A stretch of 44,468 bases of DNA from Bacteroidota bacterium (lineage in GTDB: Bacteria; Bacteroidota; Bacteroidia; Chitinophagales; Chitinophagaceae): positions 1 through 44,468 of the forward strand of contig JBAXVH010000001.1 in NCBI GenBank assembly GCA_037129215.1, in the 5' to 3' direction. Under the pieces are notes generated by a model that was not told the DNA's origin, made no database searches, and was given only the letters and a program-made list of their open reading frames with translations. Made by a program: the position numbers and the translations under genes. This document shows, piece after piece, positions 1,151 through 44,468 of the stretch (its first letter is position 1; each line of letters begins with the position of its first letter).

Positions 1151-1541
1151 TTATATATGGCGGTAGTGATGTGCCTTAATATGAACTACCGTATAATAGC
1201 CCCTATGAAGACAGGGGCTAAGGAAACTTAAGGGGGGGACAGACATTTACTAGCGTAAATGAATGGCCTATCCCCTCTGTCTTTATCTTATTAGCTTTAA
1301 TCAAATGTCTGTCATCTCCCTCCCAATCCCTCCCCTTCTGTCAAGCAGAAATATGGAGGTCTTGTCCGTTAATTTACTCAAGAGAGTAAGAATTCTTTAA
1401 TCTATAGGATTAAAAGAATTCCTATTAGGGGTTAGGACCCCAAAGTAATTGACTGATGGCAAGAGTGGGTATACGGCCATCAACTACTTCTCGCCTCTTA
1501 CATAGCCTCTAAGCAGCCGGCCTAATAAAACACAGCTCAAC

Positions 1542-1631
1542 CATGAATCGAAGATTCATAATCTACGCATTTAGCCCCTCGCCAAGCTCGTGCCTACTCG
1601 GACATGAATTTTATGATTCATAATCCTCGCA
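1542..1631 (+). repeat. Two copies of a 28-29 nt hairpin-containing unit, CATGAAT(N3-6)(G)ATTCATAATCnnCGCA
   Basis: 1542-1569 is catgaatcgaagattcataatctacgca and 1603-1631 is catgaattttatgattcataatcctcgca. Each folds as ATGAAT(C)/(G)ATTCAT with a different loop, so the stem is conserved while the loop varies. Confidence 0.7.
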
Positions 1632-1726
1632 GTCACTAATACTTAGTCACTAAACCCCTGGTGCTTAAAGGAGTGGAACACGACAAATACTGGAGTAGGT
1701 TACGACAAAACTTGGTGAACCTAGGG

Positions 1727-1739
1727 GGAATTTCCGAAC
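1727..1739 (+). repeat. GGAATTTCCGAAC motif, copy 1 (copy 2 at 2000..2012 overlaps the -35 region of the rightward promoter)
   Basis: Exact 13-mer present twice, 273 bp apart. Confidence 0.6.
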
Positions 1740-1774
1740 TCCATGTGGGGGTATCGTCCGGAAAGAAAACCCAG

Positions 1775-1914
1775 TGTTTTCAAGCACTTAAGAAAATGTT
1801 TTCAAGGACCTAGGAAGTGGAACCAGAGCAGGAACATTCATAGCTATTATATCTAGTATGACTAGAAATAAAGAATCAAAAATAAACCATTTAATGTTTT
1901 CAAGGGCTTAGGAA
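1775..1914 (+). repeat. Three copies of a 20-bp motif, TGTTTTCAAGnnCnTAnGAA (iteron- or operator-like)
   Basis: 1775-1794 tgttttcaagcacttaagaa; 1797-1816 tgttttcaaggacctaggaa; 1895-1914 tgttttcaagggcttaggaa. Copies 1 and 2 are 22 bp apart. An AT-rich stretch (about 1840-1895) lies between copies 2 and 3. Confidence 0.65.
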
Positions 1915-1965
1915 AATGTTCCCTAAGTTACACATTTACTTTAAAAACACCAGTATAGCAGTGAT

Positions 1966-1983
1966 TGTTCCCTATCAGGAACA
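1966..1983. promoter_or_regulatory. Palindrome TGTTCC-ctatca-GGAACA (operator-like)
   Basis: Perfect 6-bp arms. The GGAACATT half-site also occurs at about 1831 and, inverted, at about 1916. It lies about 35 bp upstream of the promoter at 1997..2024. Confidence 0.45.
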
Positions 1984-1996
1984 TTGGTGTCAGGTA

Positions 1997-2024
1997 TTAG
2001 GAATTTCCGAACATGTGATATAAT
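1997..2024 (+). promoter_or_regulatory. Putative sigma70-type promoter with extended -10 (TTAGGA-N16-TGaTATAAT) heading the rightward structural operon
   Basis: The -10 TATAAT is at 2019-2024 with TG at 2016-2017. The same GTGATATAAT/TGATATAAT core recurs at 19294-19302 and 42574-42582. The -35 is weak and overlaps GGAATTTCCGAAC copy 2. Confidence 0.5.
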
Positions 2025-2040
2025 GTATTAAATCCTACTT

Positions 2041-2601
2041 GTGAAAACGCCTATGCCATTTTTACTTTTATTATTACCTCTCCTTGCTAAAATTCCCGGA
2101 ATGATCGGAGATTATTACAGCAAGCGTCTTGACCTTGAAGTTACTAAGGTTAATACAGCTAAGGAAGTTGAACTTGCTAAAGCACAGATGGCTACAGATA
2201 TTGCCAAGGCTGAATTAGCAAATGCGCAGCAAGTTGTTCTTATGACTTCTACAACTTTCCGCACAGTTATGACTTGTTTAGTATTTACACCGTTTGCTAT
2301 TACAATGATTTCTTCTAAATGGTCTGCTGTTATATTCGCTAACTTTTCTTTAATGCCTGCCTGGTATTCACAAATATGTCTTACAATCATTTTAGCTATA
2401 TACGGTATTACTGTAGGGGCCCCTGTTGTTAAGAACATATTTGACGGCTTAGGTACTTATCTAGATGGTAAAAGAAATTATATTCTAGAAAAAGCAAAAA
2501 TAAATAGAAAGGTATTTTTTGATAGTCTTCGTAAAGACGGAGCACTATCTCAACAGGAAGTAGACGAGGCTAATAAGGCCCTTGATGAAGCAGAGAAATA
2601 A
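2041..2601 (+). CDS. Membrane protein with an N-terminal coiled-coil and about 3 TM helices (possible holin-like protein; function uncertain)
   Basis: 186-aa ORF, GTG at 2041 or ATG at 2053, no clear SD. Hydrophobic segments are VMTCLVFTPFAITMI, AVIFANFSLMPAWY and ICLTIILAIYGITVGAPVV. The layout resembles 3-TM holins of gene-transfer-agent type, but this was not verifiable here. Confidence 0.45.
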   Translation: MKTPMPFLLLLLPLLAKIPGMIGDYYSKRLDLEVTKVNTAKEVELAKAQMATDIAKAELANAQQVVLMTSTTFRTVMTCLVFTPFAITMISSKWSAVIFANFSLMPAWYSQICLTIILAIYGITVGAPVVKNIFDGLGTYLDGKRNYILEKAKINRKVFFDSLRKDGALSQQEVDEANKALDEAEK

Positions 2602-2602
2602 C

Positions 2603-2833
2603 ATGGATTTTGATACCGCATCACTTAAATATGCTATGGGTATGGTAGTTTCTAGTATTCTATCGTATACATTATGGGCCTATAAGAAACATGTTAAAAG
2701 AATAGAGGTAATGAATGATACAATGAATACTCTACAAACAAATCAAAAAGTAACAGATGTAGAGATTCGAGCAATAAAAGAAGATGTTACAGAAATAAAA
2801 AGTACACTTAAACTAATTTTAAAACGTTTATAG
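2603..2833 (+). CDS. Small single-pass membrane protein with a C-terminal coiled-coil
   Basis: ATG at 2603 (MDFDTASLKY...) lies just after the upstream stop. The track ORF starts at 2582, inside the previous gene. TM segment is GMVVSSILSYTLWAY. Confidence 0.5.
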   Translation: MDFDTASLKYAMGMVVSSILSYTLWAYKKHVKRIEVMNDTMNTLQTNQKVTDVEIRAIKEDVTEIKSTLKLILKRL

Positions 2834-2885
2834 GAACTATTAAAGAATTCTTAATAGTTCAAAAAGAAGGCAAGTCAGCAATAGA

Positions 2886-3241
2886 CTAAATAATTAAATA
2901 ATCTAAAGGAATTAAAATGATAGTTACAATATTTAAAACAATATTATATGTAGTTCTATTACCTGTAAAATTTTGTTTATATTTTTTAAATAAAATATTA
3001 TCTTTTTCTGCACGAGAAGTTAAAGAATTACAAGATTTCGTAGTACCACTATGCGAGTCGCTTCTGTAGTTATAAACTAAATAATTAAATAACCCAAAGG
3101 AATTAAAATGATAGCTAAAATATTTAAAACAGTATTATATGTAGTTCTATTACCTGTAAGATTTTGTTTATATCTTATAAATAAAGGATTAGAATTTGCT
3201 GCACACGAATTTAAAGAATTACAAGATTTAGTAACTCCACC
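2886..3241 (+). repeat. Tandem duplication (about 191-bp period) of a small-gene unit including its RBS
   Basis: 2886.. ctaaataattaaataatctaaaggaattaaaatgatagttaca... matches 3077.. ctaaataattaaataacccaaaggaattaaaatgatagctaaa... Similarity runs through ...aaagaattacaagattt, then the copies diverge. Confidence 0.85.
2917..3069 (+). CDS. Small membrane-anchored protein (50 aa), paralog of 3108..3338 (absent from the ORF track)
   Basis: AAGGA RBS 7 nt upstream. Translation MIVTIFKTILYVVLLPVKFCLYFLNKILSFSAREVKELQDFVVPLCESLL parallels MIAKIFKTVLYVVLLPVRFCLYLINKGLEFAAHEFKELQDLV... Confidence 0.4.
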   Translation: MIVTIFKTILYVVLLPVKFCLYFLNKILSFSAREVKELQDFVVPLCESLL

Positions 3242-3838: not shown

Positions 3839-5297
3839 AACTAAGGAAGACTTACAAAAAGAGTTATTAGAGTTATTAGAAGAAAAAGAACGTCAAGTAG
3901 AGTTTAATAAAATCTCTACATTGTTTCCCGCTGTAGGACCCTTTCGTAGAGAATTGTATCCAAAGCATATAGCATTTATGAATGCTGGTAAAGATTTTTC
4001 TCAAAGAGCTTTCATCGCAGCAAATCGAACCGGCAAAACGGTTTCAGGAGCTGCTGAGATGTCTTATCATTTAACAGGACAATATCCTGAATGGTGGGAA
4101 GGAAGACGTTTCTTAAATGCTATCAGTGCATGGGCAGCAGGAGTATCAAATCAATCAACAAAAGAAATTCAACAATATGAATTAATAGGGGATTTATCTA
4201 ATTCTGGTACAGGATTAATTCCTAAAGATTGTATTTTAAAAATAACAAAAAAACCAGGGGTTGCTGATGCTGTAGAAACAGTATTTGTACAGCATATAAG
4301 TGGCGGAACAAGTCAATTAACATTTAAATCCTATGAACAGGGTAGAGATAGTTTTCAAGGAACTAAAAAACAAGTTATATGGTTAGATGAGGAACCAAAA
4401 GATAGGTCTATATTTACAGAATGTCTAACAAGGACAATGGACAAATATAACCCCGGTATAATATATTGTACTTTTACACCACTTTTTGGTTTATCTGATG
4501 TAGTTATGAACTTTTTACCAGATGGTAAAGTTCCAGAAGATGGTTTTGATCCATTACACCCATATAAATTTGTTACACAAGTTAACTGGGAAGAAGTACC
4601 TCATCTATCTGAGTCCCAAAAGAAAGAAATATTAGATAGTTATTCTCCTCATGAACGTGATGCACGTAGTAAAGGAGTTCCATCTCTAGGAGCTGGAGCT
4701 ATTTATCCTTATACAGAAGACAGTATTGTTACTGAACCATTTAAAATACCTAGTTGGTGGCCTAAAGCCTATGGTTTAGACGTAGGTTGGAACAAAACAG
4801 CCGCAGTTTGGGGGGCTTTAGATCCTGATAGTAATAAAATATTTATTTATTCCGAACATTATGAAGGATTTGAACAACCAGTTGTACATGCCCAATCTAT
4901 AAAAGCTAGGGGAGATTGGATTACAGGAGCAATTGATCCTGCATCTGAAGGATCTAGCCAAGTAGATGGTAAAGCTTTATTTAATTTGTATGAAGAAGCA
5001 GGATTAATTTTAGAATTTGCAGATAATTCGATAAATGCTGGTATAATGAAAGTAGGACAAATGTTTGCGTCCGGGCAATTAAAAATATTTAGCACATGTA
5101 AAAATCTATTAAAAGAATATCGTGTATACAGAAGAGATGAAAATGGTAAGATTGTTAAGAAAAATGATCATGCTCTAGATGCACTCAGATATTTAATGAT
5201 GACAGGAATGGATTATATGTCAATTCCTATTGATCCTGACTACACAGAAAAAGCCGATACCAATGACAGCGGCAGAGATGAATTTACCGGCTATTAA
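3822..5297 (+). CDS. terL: Terminase large subunit
   Basis: Walker A AANRTGKT, Walker B VIWLDEEP, C-terminal nuclease block KKNDHALDALRYL. 491 aa. The start could be 3822 or 3828. Confidence 0.95.
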   Translation: MIMTLETKEDLQKELLELLEEKERQVEFNKISTLFPAVGPFRRELYPKHIAFMNAGKDFSQRAFIAANRTGKTVSGAAEMSYHLTGQYPEWWEGRRFLNAISAWAAGVSNQSTKEIQQYELIGDLSNSGTGLIPKDCILKITKKPGVADAVETVFVQHISGGTSQLTFKSYEQGRDSFQGTKKQVIWLDEEPKDRSIFTECLTRTMDKYNPGIIYCTFTPLFGLSDVVMNFLPDGKVPEDGFDPLHPYKFVTQVNWEEVPHLSESQKKEILDSYSPHERDARSKGVPSLGAGAIYPYTEDSIVTEPFKIPSWWPKAYGLDVGWNKTAAVWGALDPDSNKIFIYSEHYEGFEQPVVHAQSIKARGDWITGAIDPASEGSSQVDGKALFNLYEEAGLILEFADNSINAGIMKVGQMFASGQLKIFSTCKNLLKEYRVYRRDENGKIVKKNDHALDALRYLMMTGMDYMSIPIDPDYTEKADTNDSGRDEFTGY

Positions 5298-24730: not shown

Positions 24731-25744
24731 TTAGTCCTTTTTATTTGCAATCAAGTCTTTAAGTTCTGCTTCAAAGATTCTAGATTTTGGTTTTGGTTTT
24801 GGTGCTACAACCTCCCATTCGTAATCAAATTCTATTTCTTGAGCCAATTTCAAGACTTCTTTCCTAAGTATTCTAACACCCATCTTAGATTTTACAGCTT
24901 TATTAATTATATCCTCTTCTTCTTTAACAGACAAGGTGAAGTTTGGGCAATTAAAATGTTTCAATTCTTTTCTCATATTTGGAAGAATAAGAGTTCTCAA
25001 TATCTTCTTATAATCAGCCTTTTCCAATTTGTCAAGAGGTACGATATTATGAATACGACCTACTAATTCCGGAAGTAGTCCATATTTAATAACTTCTTGT
25101 TCCAAATCAAATTCATTATTTACTTCATGTACTTCTGTTTTAAAGCCAATAGATCTTTTATTACTTTCTTTACTAAGAGTCATTTTATCAAATGCGCCGG
25201 CAAAGATAAATGAAAGATTGGCCAATTCAGTAGTGTTCTCAAACAGAGATAGAAACCCTGCTTGTACATGTTGGTTCCAACTACCAGTGCTGTCGAATGC
25301 TTTGGCTAGTTTATCTACTTCATCGATAAACACAACCATTTGATCTAGAGCACCATCTTTAGAAAAGTATATTTCTGGCTTTTCTTCTACCAACCTAGAC
25401 GCTTCTTTTTTAAGAGTTTTAATCAGTCTATCAACACTAAATCCATCAGACGCGTTAGTAGGTGCTAATTGGTTGGCATCTATACAAACCAAAGGAAAAT
25501 CACAAATCTTAGACAAAGATTGAACCAAATGGGTTTTACCTGTACCACTATTACCAATCAATAGACAGTTAACATTCTTAACTAAATCGTCCTGAGCTAC
25601 AGGTGTTTCAGCATGCCATATTTGGTGATAACGCATCTTAGAACGATTGACTAGTGTAATCAAAGCCATTTTAGCTGCTTTGTGTCCATATACCACTTGG
25701 TCTAGTTCTTTAAGAATAGTCTCGTTACTTCTAGAGTACAGCAT
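24731..25744 (-). CDS. ClpX-like AAA+ unfoldase lacking the N-terminal zinc-binding domain
   Basis: Walker A GNSGTGKT, Walker B VVFIDEVDK, sensor-1 FIFAGAF, IGF loop RSIGFKT, LLPELVGRI (Arg finger block), MGVRILRKEV (sensor-2 region). ATG at 25744 has an AAGGAA RBS; the track start 25783 is less likely. Confidence 0.8.
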   Translation of the reverse strand: MLYSRSNETILKELDQVVYGHKAAKMALITLVNRSKMRYHQIWHAETPVAQDDLVKNVNCLLIGNSGTGKTHLVQSLSKICDFPLVCIDANQLAPTNASDGFSVDRLIKTLKKEASRLVEEKPEIYFSKDGALDQMVVFIDEVDKLAKAFDSTGSWNQHVQAGFLSLFENTTELANLSFIFAGAFDKMTLSKESNKRSIGFKTEVHEVNNEFDLEQEVIKYGLLPELVGRIHNIVPLDKLEKADYKKILRTLILPNMRKELKHFNCPNFTLSVKEEEDIINKAVKSKMGVRILRKEVLKLAQEIEFDYEWEVVAPKPKPKSRIFEAELKDLIANKKD

Positions 25745-25799
25745 ATCATTTCCTTTTGTTGTATATATTATATATAATAACATATATTTGGAAGAATTG

Positions 25800-35459: not shown

Positions 35460-35945
35460 TCAATTTTGTTTTACATGACTCCAAATTTCACCTGTCCAAA
35501 TACGATAAATTAAAGAAGAATGAACCTTATATAAAGCTGCAATTTTAGGGCCTGACAACTTTCCTTGATAGTTTCTTATTTCTCTAACTTTAATATCTGT
35601 TAATTTAGAATTAGGCCGAGATTCACCCTTCACTCTTGAACATCTCCCTTTAAGCATCTTATCTCTATTATTATCTGCAACAGTTCCTAAAAATAAATGT
35701 TGCAAATTTAAACATTTAGGATTATCACATTTATGACATACAAGTAATTTTTCTGGTATAGGACCATTGTGTCTAATCCAAACAGCTCGATGTAATAATC
35801 GTGCATAATTATTTCCTACGTATGTTTTACCTACTCTAGCATATCCCCATTCATTAACAACTTTAGTAAATTCTACACAATTATTTTCATTATTTAATAA
35901 AGTATTAGTTTTAATATAATGATCAAATCTACTATGATCTACCAT
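35460..35945 (-). mobile_element. Free-standing HNH homing endonuclease gene between the helicase and polymerase genes
   Basis: 161-aa ORF. GYARVG...HRAVWIRHNGPIPEKLLVCHKCDNPKCLNLQHLFLGTVADNNRD (HNH core) plus a C-terminal HTH (SKLTDIKVREIRNYQGKLSGPKIAALYKVHSSLIYRIWTGEIW). Confidence 0.85.
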
Positions 35946-37362: not shown

Positions 37363-37947
37363 TTAAAACTTATATATTAAATGACACATTGGAAAATCCA
37401 TACTAGCTTCTCTAGTATCTAAAGGAGGGTGAATATTGTCAAGACTAATAGTTTCATGACCATATTTATCAATCATTCGTTGCCAAAGGGCCTCACCTGC
37501 ACATGGGTCATAACCAGCACGCAAAGCTAAATAAACACCATATCGATCAGCGTTTGATTCATTAATAGTAGGAGATATAACGGGAATATCCCAATTTAAT
37601 AAATGTCCTAGCATAACATGACCAATTTCATGGCCTAAAATAATAGCCATTTCATCGTCTGTTTGTAGAAATTCTAGCATCGCTGTCGTGATTGTAACTG
37701 TTTTGCCGTCTGTGTATGCATTGATTTCGTCACTTTCATCCACAACTAGCGCAGGAAATTTAACACCACTATCTGTATACGCTTGAAGGGTCATAAAAAC
37801 AGCGTTAGCATGTTGTAGTTTTGTTTTTATATCCATTTTGGCTGATTTAAATGCGAAAACACTAGCAAGACTTAGTGTAACTAGAGATATTATAAGGATT
37901 CTGATATATTTATATTGAAATAGTTTTTTCATTGGCTCCATCATCAT
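37363..37947 (-). CDS. Secreted M48-family Zn metallopeptidase (paralog of 716..1150)
   Basis: Signal/TM segment ILIISLVTLSLASVFA. INAYTDG...DDEMAIILGHEIGHVMLGH (HExxH), SNADRYGVYLALRAGYDPC...HPPLDTRE. Confidence 0.7.
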   Translation of the reverse strand: MMMEPMKKLFQYKYIRILIISLVTLSLASVFAFKSAKMDIKTKLQHANAVFMTLQAYTDSGVKFPALVVDESDEINAYTDGKTVTITTAMLEFLQTDDEMAIILGHEIGHVMLGHLLNWDIPVISPTINESNADRYGVYLALRAGYDPCAGEALWQRMIDKYGHETISLDNIHPPLDTREASMDFPMCHLIYKF

Positions 37948-42996: not shown

Positions 42997-43197
42997 ATGA
43001 TAAATAATATAAAATTAACTTATAGATATTTTTGTAATGATTGTAATGCACGATATAAATTCAAATTAACTCCATTAGAAGCCCAAAATAAATTTCCATG
43101 TAATTATTGTGACAATGCTTACATTACACATAATTTAAAAACAAATAATAATCTATTACACAGATTAGTTCATTTCATTTGCAAATATACAAGGTAG
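42997..43197 (+). CDS. Small zinc-ribbon protein (CxxC...CxxC)
   Basis: FCNDCNARY...PCNYCDN. 66 aa. Confidence 0.5.
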   Translation: MINNIKLTYRYFCNDCNARYKFKLTPLEAQNKFPCNYCDNAYITHNLKTNNNLLHRLVHFICKYTR

Positions 43198-43208
43198 TAA
43201 GGAGACGT

Positions 43209-43394
43209 ATGTGCCCTATATATGAAAAATATTGTGAAAAATGCGATAAAACAGAGGAATATCTCTTGACACTAAGTAAGAAAGATAATATAATAACATG
43301 TAGAGACTGTAAAAATGATATGACCTCCCTTGTATCCAGCGGTAACTTTAAATTGTATGGCGAAGGGGTATATAAACCAAGTAAAAAGGAGTAA
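43209..43394 (+). CDS. Small zinc-ribbon protein (FmdB-like CxxC...CxxC)
   Basis: MCPIYEKYCEKCDK...TCRDCKND. AAGGAG RBS before the ATG at 43209; the track start is 43179. Confidence 0.55.
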   Translation: MCPIYEKYCEKCDKTEEYLLTLSKKDNIITCRDCKNDMTSLVSSGNFKLYGEGVYKPSKKE

Positions 43395-43397
43395 GTT

Positions 43398-43520
43398 ATG
43401 CAAGTATGTCCAATTTGTAAAAATGAATATATCATTTGTAAATGTAAGTTCTGTGGTCAGTCACCTAACCATAGCGACCCTATTCAGTATCCATTAAGAC
43501 CACCATACAGCAGATTGTAA
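43398..43520 (+). CDS. Small zinc-ribbon protein (40 aa; not in the ORF track)
   Basis: AAGGAG RBS 7 nt upstream. MQVCPICKNEYIICKCKFCGQSPNHSDPIQYPLRPPYSRL. Confidence 0.45.
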   Translation: MQVCPICKNEYIICKCKFCGQSPNHSDPIQYPLRPPYSRL

Positions 43521-43924: not shown

Positions 43925-44000
43925 GCGCCCGTAGCTCAGTTGGGTAGAGCATTAGCATTGTAGCTGATGGAGGCAGGTTCGAATCCTGCCGGACGCACCA
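43925..44000 (+). tRNA. tRNA-like gene with a non-canonical anticodon arm (closest to tRNA-Thr UGU lacking one loop nucleotide), encoded CCA
   Basis: Acceptor GCGCCCG/CGGACGC (one C:A mismatch), D arm GCTC-AGTTGGGTA-GAGC, T arm GCAGG-TTCGAAT-CCTGC, discriminator A plus CCA. The anticodon stem TTAGC/GCTGA leaves only a 6-nt loop (ATTGTA), or 8 nt if the closing C-G pair opens. Confidence 0.7.
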
Positions 44001-44032: not shown

Positions 44033-44196
44033 TAATCACTTAGAATGGCGCACCAGTCCTAGAACAGACGGGGCGAATCGTCTATAAATAGCGCCCATGG
44101 ATTTTGCAAAATATTATTTTGCATCCACCCTTCAAATTGTCTTGATCATATCAAAATCCGAAAACAAATGCTAAGAATAGTCAAGGAGAATAAAGA

Positions 44197-44468
44197 ATGG
44201 TAGAGACTGCAGCTAGTCATTTAGTTCCAATGGTCGTTGAACAAACCTCTCGCGGGGAGCGGTCTTACGATATATATTCTCGCTTACTAAAAGAACGTAT
44301 TATCTTCTTATTAGGTCAAGTTGAAGATAATATGGCCAATCTAGTCGTTGCCCAATTGTTATTTCTTGAGTCAGAAAACCCAGAAAAAGATATTTTTCTC
44401 TATATCAATTCACCGGGCGGTGTCGTAACGTCAGGTATGGCTATTTATGATACGATGCAATTTATCAA
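44197..44468 (+). CDS. clpP: ClpP, N-terminal part (3'-partial in window; continues at 1..392)
   Basis: [89 protein letters not shown] matches the conserved cellular ClpP N-terminus. Confidence 0.92.
44414..44468. repeat. Terminal exact repeat, copy 2 (identical to 1..55)
   Basis: See the feature at 1..55. Confidence 0.95.

Follow-up and report, generated by a model that had tools for sequence, protein, structure and literature searches.

A candidate structured RNA of about 0.5 kb between the early/middle operon and the late promoter of a phage genome

Introduction

To our knowledge, only a few classes of large (>400 nt) structured RNAs have been described from bacteria and phages (GOLLD, ROOL, OLE, HEARO and raiA). 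Each of these classes is structurally remarkable, and the role of the phage-borne ones is still being sought. Many GOLLD members exceed 800 nt. Other structured phage RNAs are smaller, for example the pRNA of phi29 (174 nt) and the put element of HK022 (~70 nt). ROOL and GOLLD are large, multi-helix non-coding RNAs of phages and prophages that are often encoded near tRNA genes; no protein partner or function is known for them, and cryo-EM structures of both are available (PMC12286853). Candidate structured RNAs have also been catalogued from intergenic regions of IMG/VR (29-151 nt, each in at least three IMG/VR regions; PMC10690425).

Here we describe a locus in a phage genome (the window, i.e., the whole 44,468-nt stretch of DNA analyzed) at which a structured RNA is very probably encoded on the + strand, at 1160 to ~1666, as judged from patterns of change among related sequences. 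Like ROOL and GOLLD, the candidate (~0.5 kb) has many covarying helices, is carried by a phage and has a tRNA gene nearby (tRNA-Tyr, 43925-44000), which is 1.56 kb upstream on the circle, rather than the 2 kb initially estimated, and is transcribed in the same direction. These properties (large size, covarying helices, phage location and proximity to a tRNA) place it among the "ornate" phage RNAs, which are a functional kind and not a family. Unlike ROOL and GOLLD, it has so far been found in one narrow clade of uncultivated phages, and it is shorter than GOLLD. RNA-only homo-oligomeric assembly, a further trait of the ROOL and GOLLD kind, is for the candidate a possibility.

The initial annotation had proposed a large structured RNA of 0.87 kb that could not be assigned to a family by eye, citing GOLLD and ROOL as known examples of such RNAs. 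A large RNA lacking a recognizable family is supported, but at ~0.5 kb (~1160-1666), and it does not belong to GOLLD or ROOL: neither covariance model matched the window or its relatives in Rfam cmscan searches (whole window at the gathering threshold; 1000-2200 with E up to 10; 7-12 relatives), nor did any other Rfam family. The families without a match in 1000-2200 and in the relatives include HEARO/omega RNA, OLE, raiA, group I and II introns, tmRNA, RNase P, 6S and SRP RNA, and tmRNA was also not found by ARAGORN. At permissive E-values, 1000-2200 returned just chance-level miRNA, snoRNA and viral matches (E 0.8-7, 13-19 bits), far below gathering thresholds.

The phi29 pRNA is likewise a phage-encoded structured RNA, and the candidate lies beside the packaging and structural module. 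However, pRNA is confined to phi29-like phages with protein-primed replication. This phage has a two-subunit terminase, and no Rfam family (presumably including that of pRNA) matched the region. The candidate resembles HK022 put and the boxA/boxB elements of lambda nut in having hairpin modules with a short, conserved single-stranded tail after each (AAUCYNCGCA in Z1 and Z2) and in its location between an upstream operon and later genes. Those elements differ in being tens of nucleotides long and downstream of the promoter that is modified, whereas here the late promoter is downstream of the RNA. A boxA-like string, GGCTCTTTA, was identified in only one relative, L002 (GCCTCTTA in the window), and is absent from the others. 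Like the IMG/VR candidates, the RNA is intergenic in a phage and supported by covariation; at ~500 nt vs. 29-151 nt it is set apart from them, going by the published description of that catalogue.

Results

The interval 1151-2040 (890 nt) is the longest in this circular 44.4-kb phage genome without an ORF of at least 60 aa in any frame, in agreement with the initial description of the region as ORF-free, and the only ORFs within it encode 31-50 aa. Downstream, the following gene begins at GTG 2041 or ATG 2053. GC content is raised, as had been noted (0.401 in the gap vs. 0.334 in the genome), with 0.428 in 1160-1666 and 0.372 in 1667-2040. The gap is made of two parts, a + strand segment at ~1160-1666 and a second segment at ~1667-2040.

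The genes before the element are those of the early/middle operon (tRNA-Tyr, ClpP, M48 peptidase), and the first hairpin of the element, P1, begins 9 nt past the M48 peptidase stop codon. The late operon after the gap encodes a membrane protein, the small and large terminase subunits (1.3 kb downstream of the region), a portal protein and the proteins of the genes that follow. The window was assembled as a circle, with its junction within ClpP. No genes for TnpB/IscB, reverse transcriptase or intron-encoded proteins were identified near the region.

We identified the element at the same position in ~10 distinct relatives, the flanking proteins of which are just 47-89% identical. A gene-free stretch of 0.66-1.06 kb precedes a homologous gene for a 183-aa protein in L002, L006, L012, L013, L014, L196 and L199. 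The family of this protein comprises 149 clusters, and L006 and L014 come from sequencing runs SRR28494107 and SRR34148720. Thus, relatives do not carry ordinary protein genes at this place, which the initial annotation had named as a refuting outcome, and there is no reading-frame signal. In all relatives the element is the last of the rightward early/middle genes, lies before the late promoter and is co-oriented with both. All groups share collinear motifs and hairpins in the order P1, G-run/C-run domain, P5, X, Y and Z1/Z2. In L199, the end of an ORF runs into P1. In L196, an HNH gene that brings a promoter of its own is inserted between the RNA and the late promoter.

We found no match to the region by blastn against GenBank phages, no relative in a scan of IMG/VR with the flanking M48 protein, and only one partial copy of the element in IMG/VR. 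The closest TerL among cultured or deposited phages is at most 52% identical, so there is no annotated relative for comparison. The loop pattern of P1 occurs once in the window (none expected by chance). Scans of viral, metagenome and genome collections with this loose pattern gave ~175 matches, nearly all due to chance, from which a filter on the closing stem left L088 and L118, both related phage loci, as the only new true relatives; none of 185,579 reference genomes contained a true copy. Distant relatives of the 183-aa protein (L193-L195 and L197) were rejected as members. Their upstream stretches are also long and gene-poor, but lack P1; they contain sigma-70 promoters of the ordinary type, AT-rich repeats or unrelated sequence.

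The predicted parts of the structured segment are as follows.

1160-1192, + strand: P1 hairpin, present in all 10 distinct sequences
1160-1167 with 1185-1192, + strand: P1 outer stem, GCGGTAGT pairing with ACTACCGT, G1168 bulged
1169-1172 with 1179-1182, + strand: P1 inner stem, ATGT pairing with ATAT, apical loop GCCTTA
1193-1238, + strand: AUAAUAG linker (conserved as UAuAAUAC), local hairpin and motif
1198-1204 with 1213-1219, + strand: local hairpin, AGCCCCU with AGGGGCU
1224-1238, + strand: conserved motif AAACUUAAGGGGGGG
1238-1335, + strand: central 5' domain, with an exact 11-bp inverted repeat
1238-1248 with 1303-1313, + strand: long-range pairing of the G-run and GACAGACAUUU with AAAUGUCUGUC and the C-runs at 1316-1324 and 1328-1335
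1242-1250 with 1255-1261, + strand: competing local hairpin, GACAUUUAC with GUAAAUG
1336-1350, + strand: P5 hairpin UUCUG-UCAAG-CAGAA, directly after the C-run, conserved as CCCC-UUCU-GUCAAG
1374-1453, + strand: X domain, small hairpin at 1374-1389 and long hairpin of 1387-1402 with 1407-1424
1387-1424, + strand: long hairpin of X, loop UAUA, conserved as UCUAUAG
1428-1441, + strand: GC mini-hairpin of X, GGGG-UUAGGA-CCCC, then the conserved single strand AAAGUAAUUGAC
1454-1491, + strand: Y hairpin, UGAUGGC (1454-1460) with GCCAUCA (1476-1482), then the single strand ACUACUUCU (CAYUUCU)
1543-1569, + strand: Z1 module, AUGAAUC-GAA-GAUUCAU then AAUCUACGCA, of a direct-repeat family
1600-1631, + strand: Z2 module, outer GGA (1600-1602) with UCC (1624-1626), inner AUGAAU-UUUAUG-AUUCAU (1604-1621)
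1622-1631, + strand: Z2 tail, within AAUCCUCGCA, conserved motif (G)GAWTCYNCGCA
1657-1666, + strand: CCUGGUGCUU (YCTGGTGYT), the last motif common to all relatives and the provisional 3' limit of the RNA

The pairs of the P1 inner stem alternate between U-A and U-G and between G-U and G-C among relatives, and so are compatible only with the + strand. The motif AAACTT(A/G)A(G/C)GGGGG and the C-run upstream of it were identified in all relatives. The 5' domain (1193-1355) has competing pairings, and its central part (1238-1335) is the least settled portion of the fold. The 11-bp pairing reported initially (1238-1248 with 1303-1313) is present and 100% complementary; it has one mismatch in a 97%-identical strain and is reduced to ~6 bp in L002. 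The pairing is an extension of a G-run/C-run helix, which could form in every relative. RNAalifold predicts this long-range helix in an independent subgroup, where it is invariant and thus uninformative. The competing local hairpin (1242-1261) is kept, but its loop differs in L002 and its stem in L004. The motif CCCCTnCTGTC, initially reported in both orientations, is found on the + strand (CCCCTCTGTC, 1272-1281, and CCCCTTCTGTC, 1332-1342), but its reverse copy is only the shorter CCCCTGTC (1210-1217).

There is a hairpin at the place of P5 in the window, L002, L004, L014, L196 and L199, with stems that differ (GTCAAGC/GCTTGAC, TCAAGA/TCTTGA, TTTCTG/CAGAAA). In the X domain, GAATTC/GAATTC of the window is GGATTC/GAATCC in L002, a compensatory change, and the motif GGGGnTnnnACC(CC)AAAAGnAA occurs in all relatives. 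The Y stem appears as GATGGGG/CCCCATC, GGATG.GGGG/CCCC.CGTCC, AGAG..GGGGGG/CCCTCCCTCT and AAGAGAGGGG/CTCCTCTCTT, with G-U wobbles on the + strand. The two hairpin modules described initially (1543-1559 and 1604-1621, each followed by AATCnnCGCA) recur in relatives with different stems. Z1 is ATGATTC-GAA-GAATCAT in the 97%-identical strain, a compensatory change from A-U to U-A. Z2 stems covary (GTCAAT/ATTGAC in L002, GAATCCAT/ATGGATTC in L006, GAATCGTA/TACGATTC in L199 and GATTCCAT/ATGGAATC in L004), and the outer GGA/TCC of Z2 is AGA/TCT in L002. The motif YCTGGTGYT follows Z2 by 10-60 nt in the window, L002, L004, L006, L012, L014, L198 and L199.

The segment 1155-1645 folds better than expected by chance (z = -3.5 for the + strand, z = -4.9 for the - strand; none of 100 shuffles folds as well), as does the + strand of eight relatives (z = -2.5 to -8.1). 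The fold of 1646-2040 is not above chance (z = -0.5 and -1.0). Thus, the hairpin density initially attributed to the whole region exceeds chance in its 5' part, but not in 1646-2040. The z-score is more negative on the - strand in the window and in three of the eight relatives, and fold energy alone does not choose a strand.

Several helices covary among homologs; a lack of such covariation had been named at the outset as refuting the proposal. Covarying helices are P1, P5, X, Y, Z1 and Z2, although the events are few and not independent because the ~10 distinct sequences fall into 3-4 close subgroups. MAFFT placed the stems of the X-Y domain out of register across all groups, so the helices were extracted by hand. 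In the curated P1, Y and Z2 alignment, which was fitted by hand to the structure, 95.6% of positions are paired and 17 of the 31 pairs have changed on both sides, a result reached in none of 500 shuffles (slid controls 32-45%). A plain MAFFT alignment of P1 gave a similar outcome, with 98.3% of cells paired and 7 of 12 pairs changed on both sides (0/500 shuffles; slid controls 16-48%). In an unfitted alignment of L006, L014 and L199, RNAalifold predicts 92 pairs, 18 of them with compensatory change. The alifold energy is -57.4 on the + strand vs. -51.7 on the - strand, where the P1 inner stem is lost. The curated helices contain 21 G-U and three A-C combinations; this excess suggests reading from the + strand, and the wobble-pair statistics as a whole fit a + strand RNA. 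Compensatory changes above controls, together with the absence of a protein-coding signal, are the features expected of a structured non-coding RNA.

A covariance model of one subgroup (win, win2 and L002) finds the syntenic X-domain site in L012 (E = 2.5e-6) and L013 (E = 0.037). The same model did not recover L006, L014 and L199, and scored L004 and L196 only at noise level, though its hits there lay at the syntenic position.

We identified the following features in the remainder of the gap.

1667-1995, no strand assigned: variable spacer; fold not above chance, repeat units gained and lost between strains
1727-1739: GGAATTTCCGAAC, a degenerate duplicate of the late-promoter region
1775, 1797 and 1895: three copies of TGTTTTCAAGnnCTTAGGAAAATGTT
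~1840-1895: AT-rich block
1966-1983: palindrome TGTTCC-N6-GGAACA
1997-2024, + strand: predicted late-operon promoter, by consensus match
1997-2002 and 2016-2024, + strand: its -35 element TTAGGA, 16-nt spacer and extended -10 element TGATATAAT
2000-2008: 9-bp palindrome GGAATTTCC, overlapping the 16-nt spacer of the promoter

Relative to the 97%-identical strain (L001), the window has gained or lost whole repeat units of 12, 20 and 21 nt in the spacer. A variable spacer of 230-360 nt separates the RNA from the late promoter in the window, L002 and L004. Large parts of it are missing in L002, and all of it in L006 and L014, where the RNA adjoins the promoter and the YCTGGTGYT motif adjoins the -35 element. 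Because it is partly deleted or absent in these relatives, the repeat-bearing half is dispensable. The predicted promoter at 1997-2024 has the form of a sigma-70 extended -10 promoter (TGnTATAAT, preceded at 16-18 nt by a -35-like hexamer). Immediately before the late operon, TGnTATAAT is retained in the window, L002, L004, L006, L012 and L014, and TTAGGA-N17-TATAAT is present in L006. Most likely, 1667-2040 is a dispensable, repeat-built DNA spacer that lies outside the RNA and ends in the predicted late promoter. The 0.87-kb "RNA" described initially is two things, which matters for the design of constructs: the RNA at 1160 to ~1666 and the late promoter at 1997-2024.

Consensus scans identified no conserved sigma-70 promoter upstream of P1, and no consistently placed intrinsic terminator follows the element in the window or relatives. 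The reading of a TATAAT located after P1 as the RNA's own promoter was rejected as the main one, as it lacks a -35 element, its sequence is disrupted in the 97%-identical strain (GTAATACC) and the wobble pattern of P1 argues that P1 is itself transcribed.

Discussion

We favor, as the probable explanation, a structured RNA gene of no described family, which may act in trans as a stand-alone molecule and is followed by a promoter spacer. If a structured RNA is indeed present, we consider the chances of action in trans as a stand-alone molecule, by analogy with other phage RNAs, to be about even, and action in cis to be appreciably less likely. The RNA may be transcribed rightward as the final element of the early/middle operon (tRNA-Tyr, ClpP, M48 peptidase), because P1 follows the M48 stop codon so closely, overlaps an ORF end in L199 and has no conserved promoter before it. 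It would probably be released as a discrete, stable molecule, like the co-transcribed tRNA. Action in trans could occur via the three-dimensional fold, with the RNA serving as a scaffold or decoy for a phage factor, a host factor or the RNA itself, rather than by base-pairing with a target. This mode is modelled on how GOLLD and ROOL are thought to work.

A tentative extension is that the RNA would be the first member of a previously undescribed class of large ornate phage RNAs and would act by itself as an RNA machine or scaffold. Its production might then involve processing of the early operon transcript, which would also yield the phage tRNA. It could form a self-assembling particle, as for ROOL and GOLLD, or take part as an RNA cofactor in the switch from early to late or, like the pRNA of phi29, in virion assembly. 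If a structured RNA is encoded here, the locus would represent an independent large phage RNA family with a fixed address, at the end of the early operon and directly before the late promoter. A compact 44-kb lytic-type phage would then offer a second system, with simpler genetics, for studying the use of these RNAs to a phage.

The genome itself is that of a compact lytic-type phage of 44 kb with a conventional two-subunit terminase. Its clade is uncultivated and encodes T7-type replication genes.

Alternatively, the folded RNA may work in cis, which we regard as unlikely. As a structured 3' end of the early/middle operon, or an insulator, it would set the amount of transcription that continues into the late operon. 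It could do so through termination (Rho- or structure-dependent), as a processing site or through processive antitermination similar to that of HK022 put, and it would also shield the upstream mRNA/tRNA transcript from 3' exonucleases. The constant position after the last early/middle gene and just before the late promoter fits such a role, as do the 9-nt distance of P1 from the upstream stop codon, the lack of a conserved promoter of its own, and the final conserved motif abutting the late-promoter -35 in L006 and L014. In addition, C-rich, G-poor tracts at 1314-1340 resemble, by their sequence, Rho loading sites, and the boxA-like string of L002 comes after the Y hairpin. However, that string is not kept in other relatives, and neither is a canonical terminator. 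A separate, conserved promoter for the late operon lies further downstream, and the RNA tolerates a spacer of 230-360 nt, or an HNH gene, before it. Moreover, ~500 nt with at least seven conserved helices is far above what known terminators, put or nut need.

It is improbable that the region is a DNA-level element (a replication origin, a pac or cos site, or a genome terminus), whose hairpins would form in cruciforms or in single-stranded DNA and whose repeats would be targets of terminase or replication proteins. In favor of this reading, it is 1.3 kb upstream of the terminase genes, its 3' zone contains repeated units, palindromes and an AT-rich block, many contigs of relatives end within it, and fold z-scores are significant on the - strand too. 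However, those contig ends are scattered and do not mark one terminus, and the window assembled as a circle joined in ClpP. The structured half lacks iterons; repeats are confined to the variable 1667-2040, of which part is deleted in L002, and L006 and L014 lack this repeat-bearing half. The strand-asymmetric use of G-U (21 vs. 3 A-C) and the U-G/G-U pairs of the P1 inner stem fit a one-stranded RNA and not duplex or cruciform DNA. Terminases like the one here (Terminase_6N; the small subunit is Sf6-like in L013 and L199) usually start headful packaging at a pac site in or near terS, which also argues against a site here.

It is very improbable that the region is coding sequence that has decayed or escaped annotation (pseudogenes or several small ORFs), or that its hairpins cluster by chance within an insert of higher GC, for example a MITE-like mobile element: the gap does contain ORFs of 31-50 aa, its GC differs from that of the genome, and gene callers placed a 57-aa ORF (L004) and a 127-aa - strand ORF (L011) in the homologous region, but these ORFs are not common to relatives (the DNA of L006 and L011 is identical, with an ORF called in only one), tblastx similarity is alike in all six frames with none preferred, indels between relatives are located in loops and have lengths not divisible by three, every relative has the region at a strictly syntenic position, true copies of the P1 pattern elsewhere are just L088 and L118, with none in the reference genomes, and covariation is above all 500 shuffles.

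Two palindromes close to the late promoter are probably sites for regulators. One is GGAATTTCC, and the other is TGTTCC-N6-GGAACA, which has changed symmetrically in L002 to TATTCC/GGAATA.

Genome setting and the gene-free gap

The assembly is circular: the 55 nt at its two termini are identical, and the junction lies inside the gene for a full ClpP of cellular type (188 bits to PF00574). The GC content of clpP (~0.49 versus 0.33 for the genome) suggests recent capture. The main features are as follows.

From ~42.7 kb, rightward: tRNA-Tyr (43925-44000), ClpP (44100-44468 plus 1-392), an 86-aa protein, M48-like peptidase (716-1150)
1151-2040: gene-free gap
Rightward after the gap: 186-aa membrane protein (2041-2601), small proteins, small and large terminase subunits, portal; remaining virion genes to ~24.6 kb
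24731-25783: ClpX-like AAA ATPase
37363-37947: second M48-like peptidase
Leftward half: T7-type replication genes (family A polymerase, primase-helicase, 5'-3' exonuclease), PhoH, lysozyme and others

ClpP, the ClpX-like ATPase and the two M48-like peptidases form a proteolysis toolkit that is unusual for a phage of 44 kb. An HNH gene (35460-35945) lies between the polymerase and helicase genes, and small overlapping ORFs whose products have CxxC pairs (42997-43520; zinc-ribbon-like, 40-71 aa) are clustered between the tRNA and the region of the divergent early promoters. Genes for reverse transcriptase, TnpB/IscB, integrase or phage RNA polymerase were not found in the window. The large terminase is at most 52% identical to those of the nearest deposited phages, and blastn with the gap region gave no match among GenBank phages.

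The gap is the genome's longest interval without an ORF of at least 60 aa on either strand. Its GC content is 0.40 (genome 0.33), and it contains several inverted repeats besides an exact one of 11 bp and the two hairpin modules. The initial annotation, which had noted such features and proposed 1151-2015 as a hairpin-dense candidate for a large structured RNA, was largely correct. However, hairpin density holds for 1155-1645 (fold z -3.5 on the + strand, -4.9 on the - strand) and not for 1646-2040 (-0.5 and -1.0). The excess of structure is limited to the 5' part, and thus the gap consists of two different objects. The RNA interpretation stands with corrected boundaries: 1160 to ~1666 (+ strand; GC of 1160-1666, 0.43) makes a strong candidate for a large structured phage RNA of a new family, and 1667-2040 (GC 0.37) is a variable promoter spacer.

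Conservation in related phages

Homologs of the 186-aa downstream protein were identified at 37-89% identity, and a profile search recovered a family of 149 clusters. In the fetched contigs L002, L006, L012, L013, L014, L196 and L199, the M48 peptidase gene (sometimes with a few small genes) is followed by 0.66-1.06 kb of gene-free sequence and then by the late operon (virion and packaging genes). The L006 copy is identical in L007, L008, L009 and L011; L004 and L198 carry partial copies only, and L001 and L118 combined represent another strain, with 97% identity to the window. IMG/VR contains one copy of the element, a partial one. In tblastx comparisons of the gene-free stretches, similarity is equal in all six frames and is thus at the nucleotide rather than the protein level; that the region is coding sequence is unlikely. 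All stretches in relatives fold better than dinucleotide shuffles (+ strand z -2.5 to -8.1).

The same elements occur in the same order in ten distinct sequences:

1. P1 hairpin: outer stem of 7-8 bp, bulged G, inner stem of 4 bp, loop of 6 nt
2. UAuAAUAC
3. C-run and motif AAACUUAAGGGGGG
4. Downstream C-run, then the UUCU-GUCAAG hairpin (P5)
5. X: long hairpin tipped by UCUAUAG, then GGGGnUnnnACC(CC)AAAAGnAA
6. Y hairpin, then CAYUUCU
7. Z1, Z2: one or two hairpin modules with (G)GAWUCYNCGCA at the end
8. YCUGGUGYU

In P1, Y and Z2, pairing is kept while the stem sequences vary. Even in the 97%-identical strain, Z1 shows a compensated change (ATGAATC..GATTCAT to ATGATTC..GAATCAT).

Table. Stem variants (5' side/3' side)
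P1 outer: CGGTAGT/ACTACCG, CAGTAGT/ACTACTG, CATTAGT/ACTAATG, TATTAGT/ACTAATA, GTAGTAGT/ACTACTAC, CAGTGAC/GTTACTG, ACAGTAGC/GCTACTGT
Y: TGATGGC/GCCATCA, GATGGGG/CCCCATC, AGAG..GGGGGG/CCCTCCCTCT, AAGAGAGGGG/CTCCTCTCTT
Z2: ATGAAT/ATTCAT, GTCAAT/ATTGAC, GAATCCAT/ATGGATTC, GAATCGTA/TACGATTC, GATTCCAT/ATGGAATC

In a plain MAFFT alignment of the real sequence, 98.3% of P1 cells are paired and 7 of 12 pairs show double-sided change; none of 500 shuffles reached these values, and slid partners pair at 16-48%. Hand-extracted P1, Y and Z2 (31 pairs, 11 sequences) gave 95.6% paired, a fraction inflated because that alignment was fitted to the structure, with double changes in 17 pairs (0 of 500 shuffles; slid, 32-45%). 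RNAalifold on the unfitted alignment of L006, L014 and L199 found 18 compensatory among 92 pairs and independently recovered P1, a G-run:C-run helix, X, Y and Z2. As the sample is small and phylogenetically clumped, these figures show that structure is conserved, not the number of independent events. A covariance model built solely from the window's group detected the X-Y domain in syntenic position in L012 (E = 2.5e-6) and in L013 (E = 0.037), and matched L004 and L196 at the right place at noise level. It missed L006, L014 and L199, where the X domain is built differently.

Strand, ends and presumed expression

Fold energies do not settle the strand, in the window or in relatives. The sense strand is most likely +, as for the flanking genes, given 21 G-U pairs versus 3 A-C juxtapositions in the curated helices, the P1 inner stem (which alternates U-A/U-G and G-U/G-C and is lost on folding the reverse strand), and an Alifold energy of -57.4 (+) versus -51.7 (-). 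The same strand bias speaks against hairpins that act at the DNA level only, and a role of that kind is unlikely.

In the window, P1 starts 9 nt past the stop codon of the M48 gene; in L199, it overlaps the final codons of a 66-aa ORF. We found neither a conserved promoter upstream of P1 nor a conserved canonical terminator at the 3' side. A TATAAT-like box after P1 lacks a -35 element, is broken in the sister strain and was rejected as the main reading for the RNA's own promoter. In the simplest reading, the RNA would share one early/middle transcript with the tRNA, forming its tail, and would then be processed or just stabilised by its own structure. In L004, CCTGGTGYT, the motif at the 3' boundary, has a further occurrence ~25 nt ahead of P1 (~205-225), and in L012 GATGGTGTT lies ~95 nt upstream of P1; these could be processing or boundary signals flanking the RNA, or chance.

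Spacer and predicted late promoter

The spacer folds no better than chance. Compared with the sister strain, whole repeat units of 12, 20 and 21 nt are gained or lost; L002 lacks three blocks, and L006 and L014 lack the spacer, so that the last RNA motif adjoins the promoter.

1997-2024: predicted late promoter (TTAGGA-N16-TGATATAAT), at the end of the spacer
1727-1739: GGAATTTCCGAAC, followed by a decayed copy of the promoter sequence
2000-2012: second GGAATTTCCGAAC, overlapping the promoter spacer

The extended -10 is conserved ahead of the late operon in six relatives. A 26-nt unit is present three times in the spacer, which also has a palindrome (TGTTCC-N6-GGAACA) with a symmetric change in L002. 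We read 1667-2040 as dispensable regulatory DNA that arose by promoter-region duplication, its sites having putative functions. A TTCCGAA motif recurs, in the two GGAATTTCCGAAC copies of the window and in three tandem TTCCGAAG upstream of the RNA in L012 (~4080-4120); a phage regulator that is itself conserved likely binds it. Contigs from many independent assemblies (L001, L003, L005, L010, L088, L118, L198 and L200) end within the region at differing positions, consistent with indel variation among strains in the repeat spacer rather than with a fixed terminus of the genome.

Identity and possible function

The Rfam search proposed initially gave no family match in the window (gathering threshold; 1000-2200 at E up to 10) or in relatives. 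The RNA is thus not GOLLD, ROOL, HEARO, OLE, raiA, an intron, tmRNA, RNase P, 6S or another Rfam family. In a large survey of intergenic regions from IMG/VR, the structures reported were all 29-151 nt long (PMC10690425). Phages and prophages encode the large RNAs GOLLD and ROOL, often close to tRNA genes; these RNAs, of unknown function, form RNA-only cages (PMC12286853). The candidate is of a similar kind in its size class, ornate fold, phage origin and tRNA neighbourhood, but differs in sequence and modelled structure.

This likeness favours an RNA that would act stand-alone, in trans, as a folded molecule; provided that the RNA exists, we give this an even chance. Under the same proviso, action in cis at the early/late boundary is possible but less likely, because of the element's size, the separate and conserved late promoter, and the tolerance of a variable spacer or an HNH gene between the two. 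In L196, the insertion that separates the RNA from the late operon is this HNH endonuclease gene (2301-2786), with its own TTGACA-N17-TATAAT promoter.

Other elements in relatives

An uncalled ORF of ~55-60 aa, absent from the window, lies between the late promoter and the 183-aa membrane protein in L006 (~4830-5000) and at homologous places in L012, L013, L014 and L199. It has a good Shine-Dalgarno sequence, and its hydrophobic product may be a holin or some other small membrane protein. In the more distant relative L197, the same position is taken by 1.4 kb of gene-free, GC-richer sequence (1566-3000), with a T-arm-like GGGGTTCGAATCCCC, a fold z of only -1.8 and no match in Rfam or ARAGORN; it could be a different non-coding element in the same slot. 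In L012 (1468-1504 and 1573-1679), a tRNA has as its neighbour an abiF RNA motif from Rfam (45.5 bits, above the gathering threshold), located upstream in the same early operon; the motif may be an RNA-based counter-defence element.
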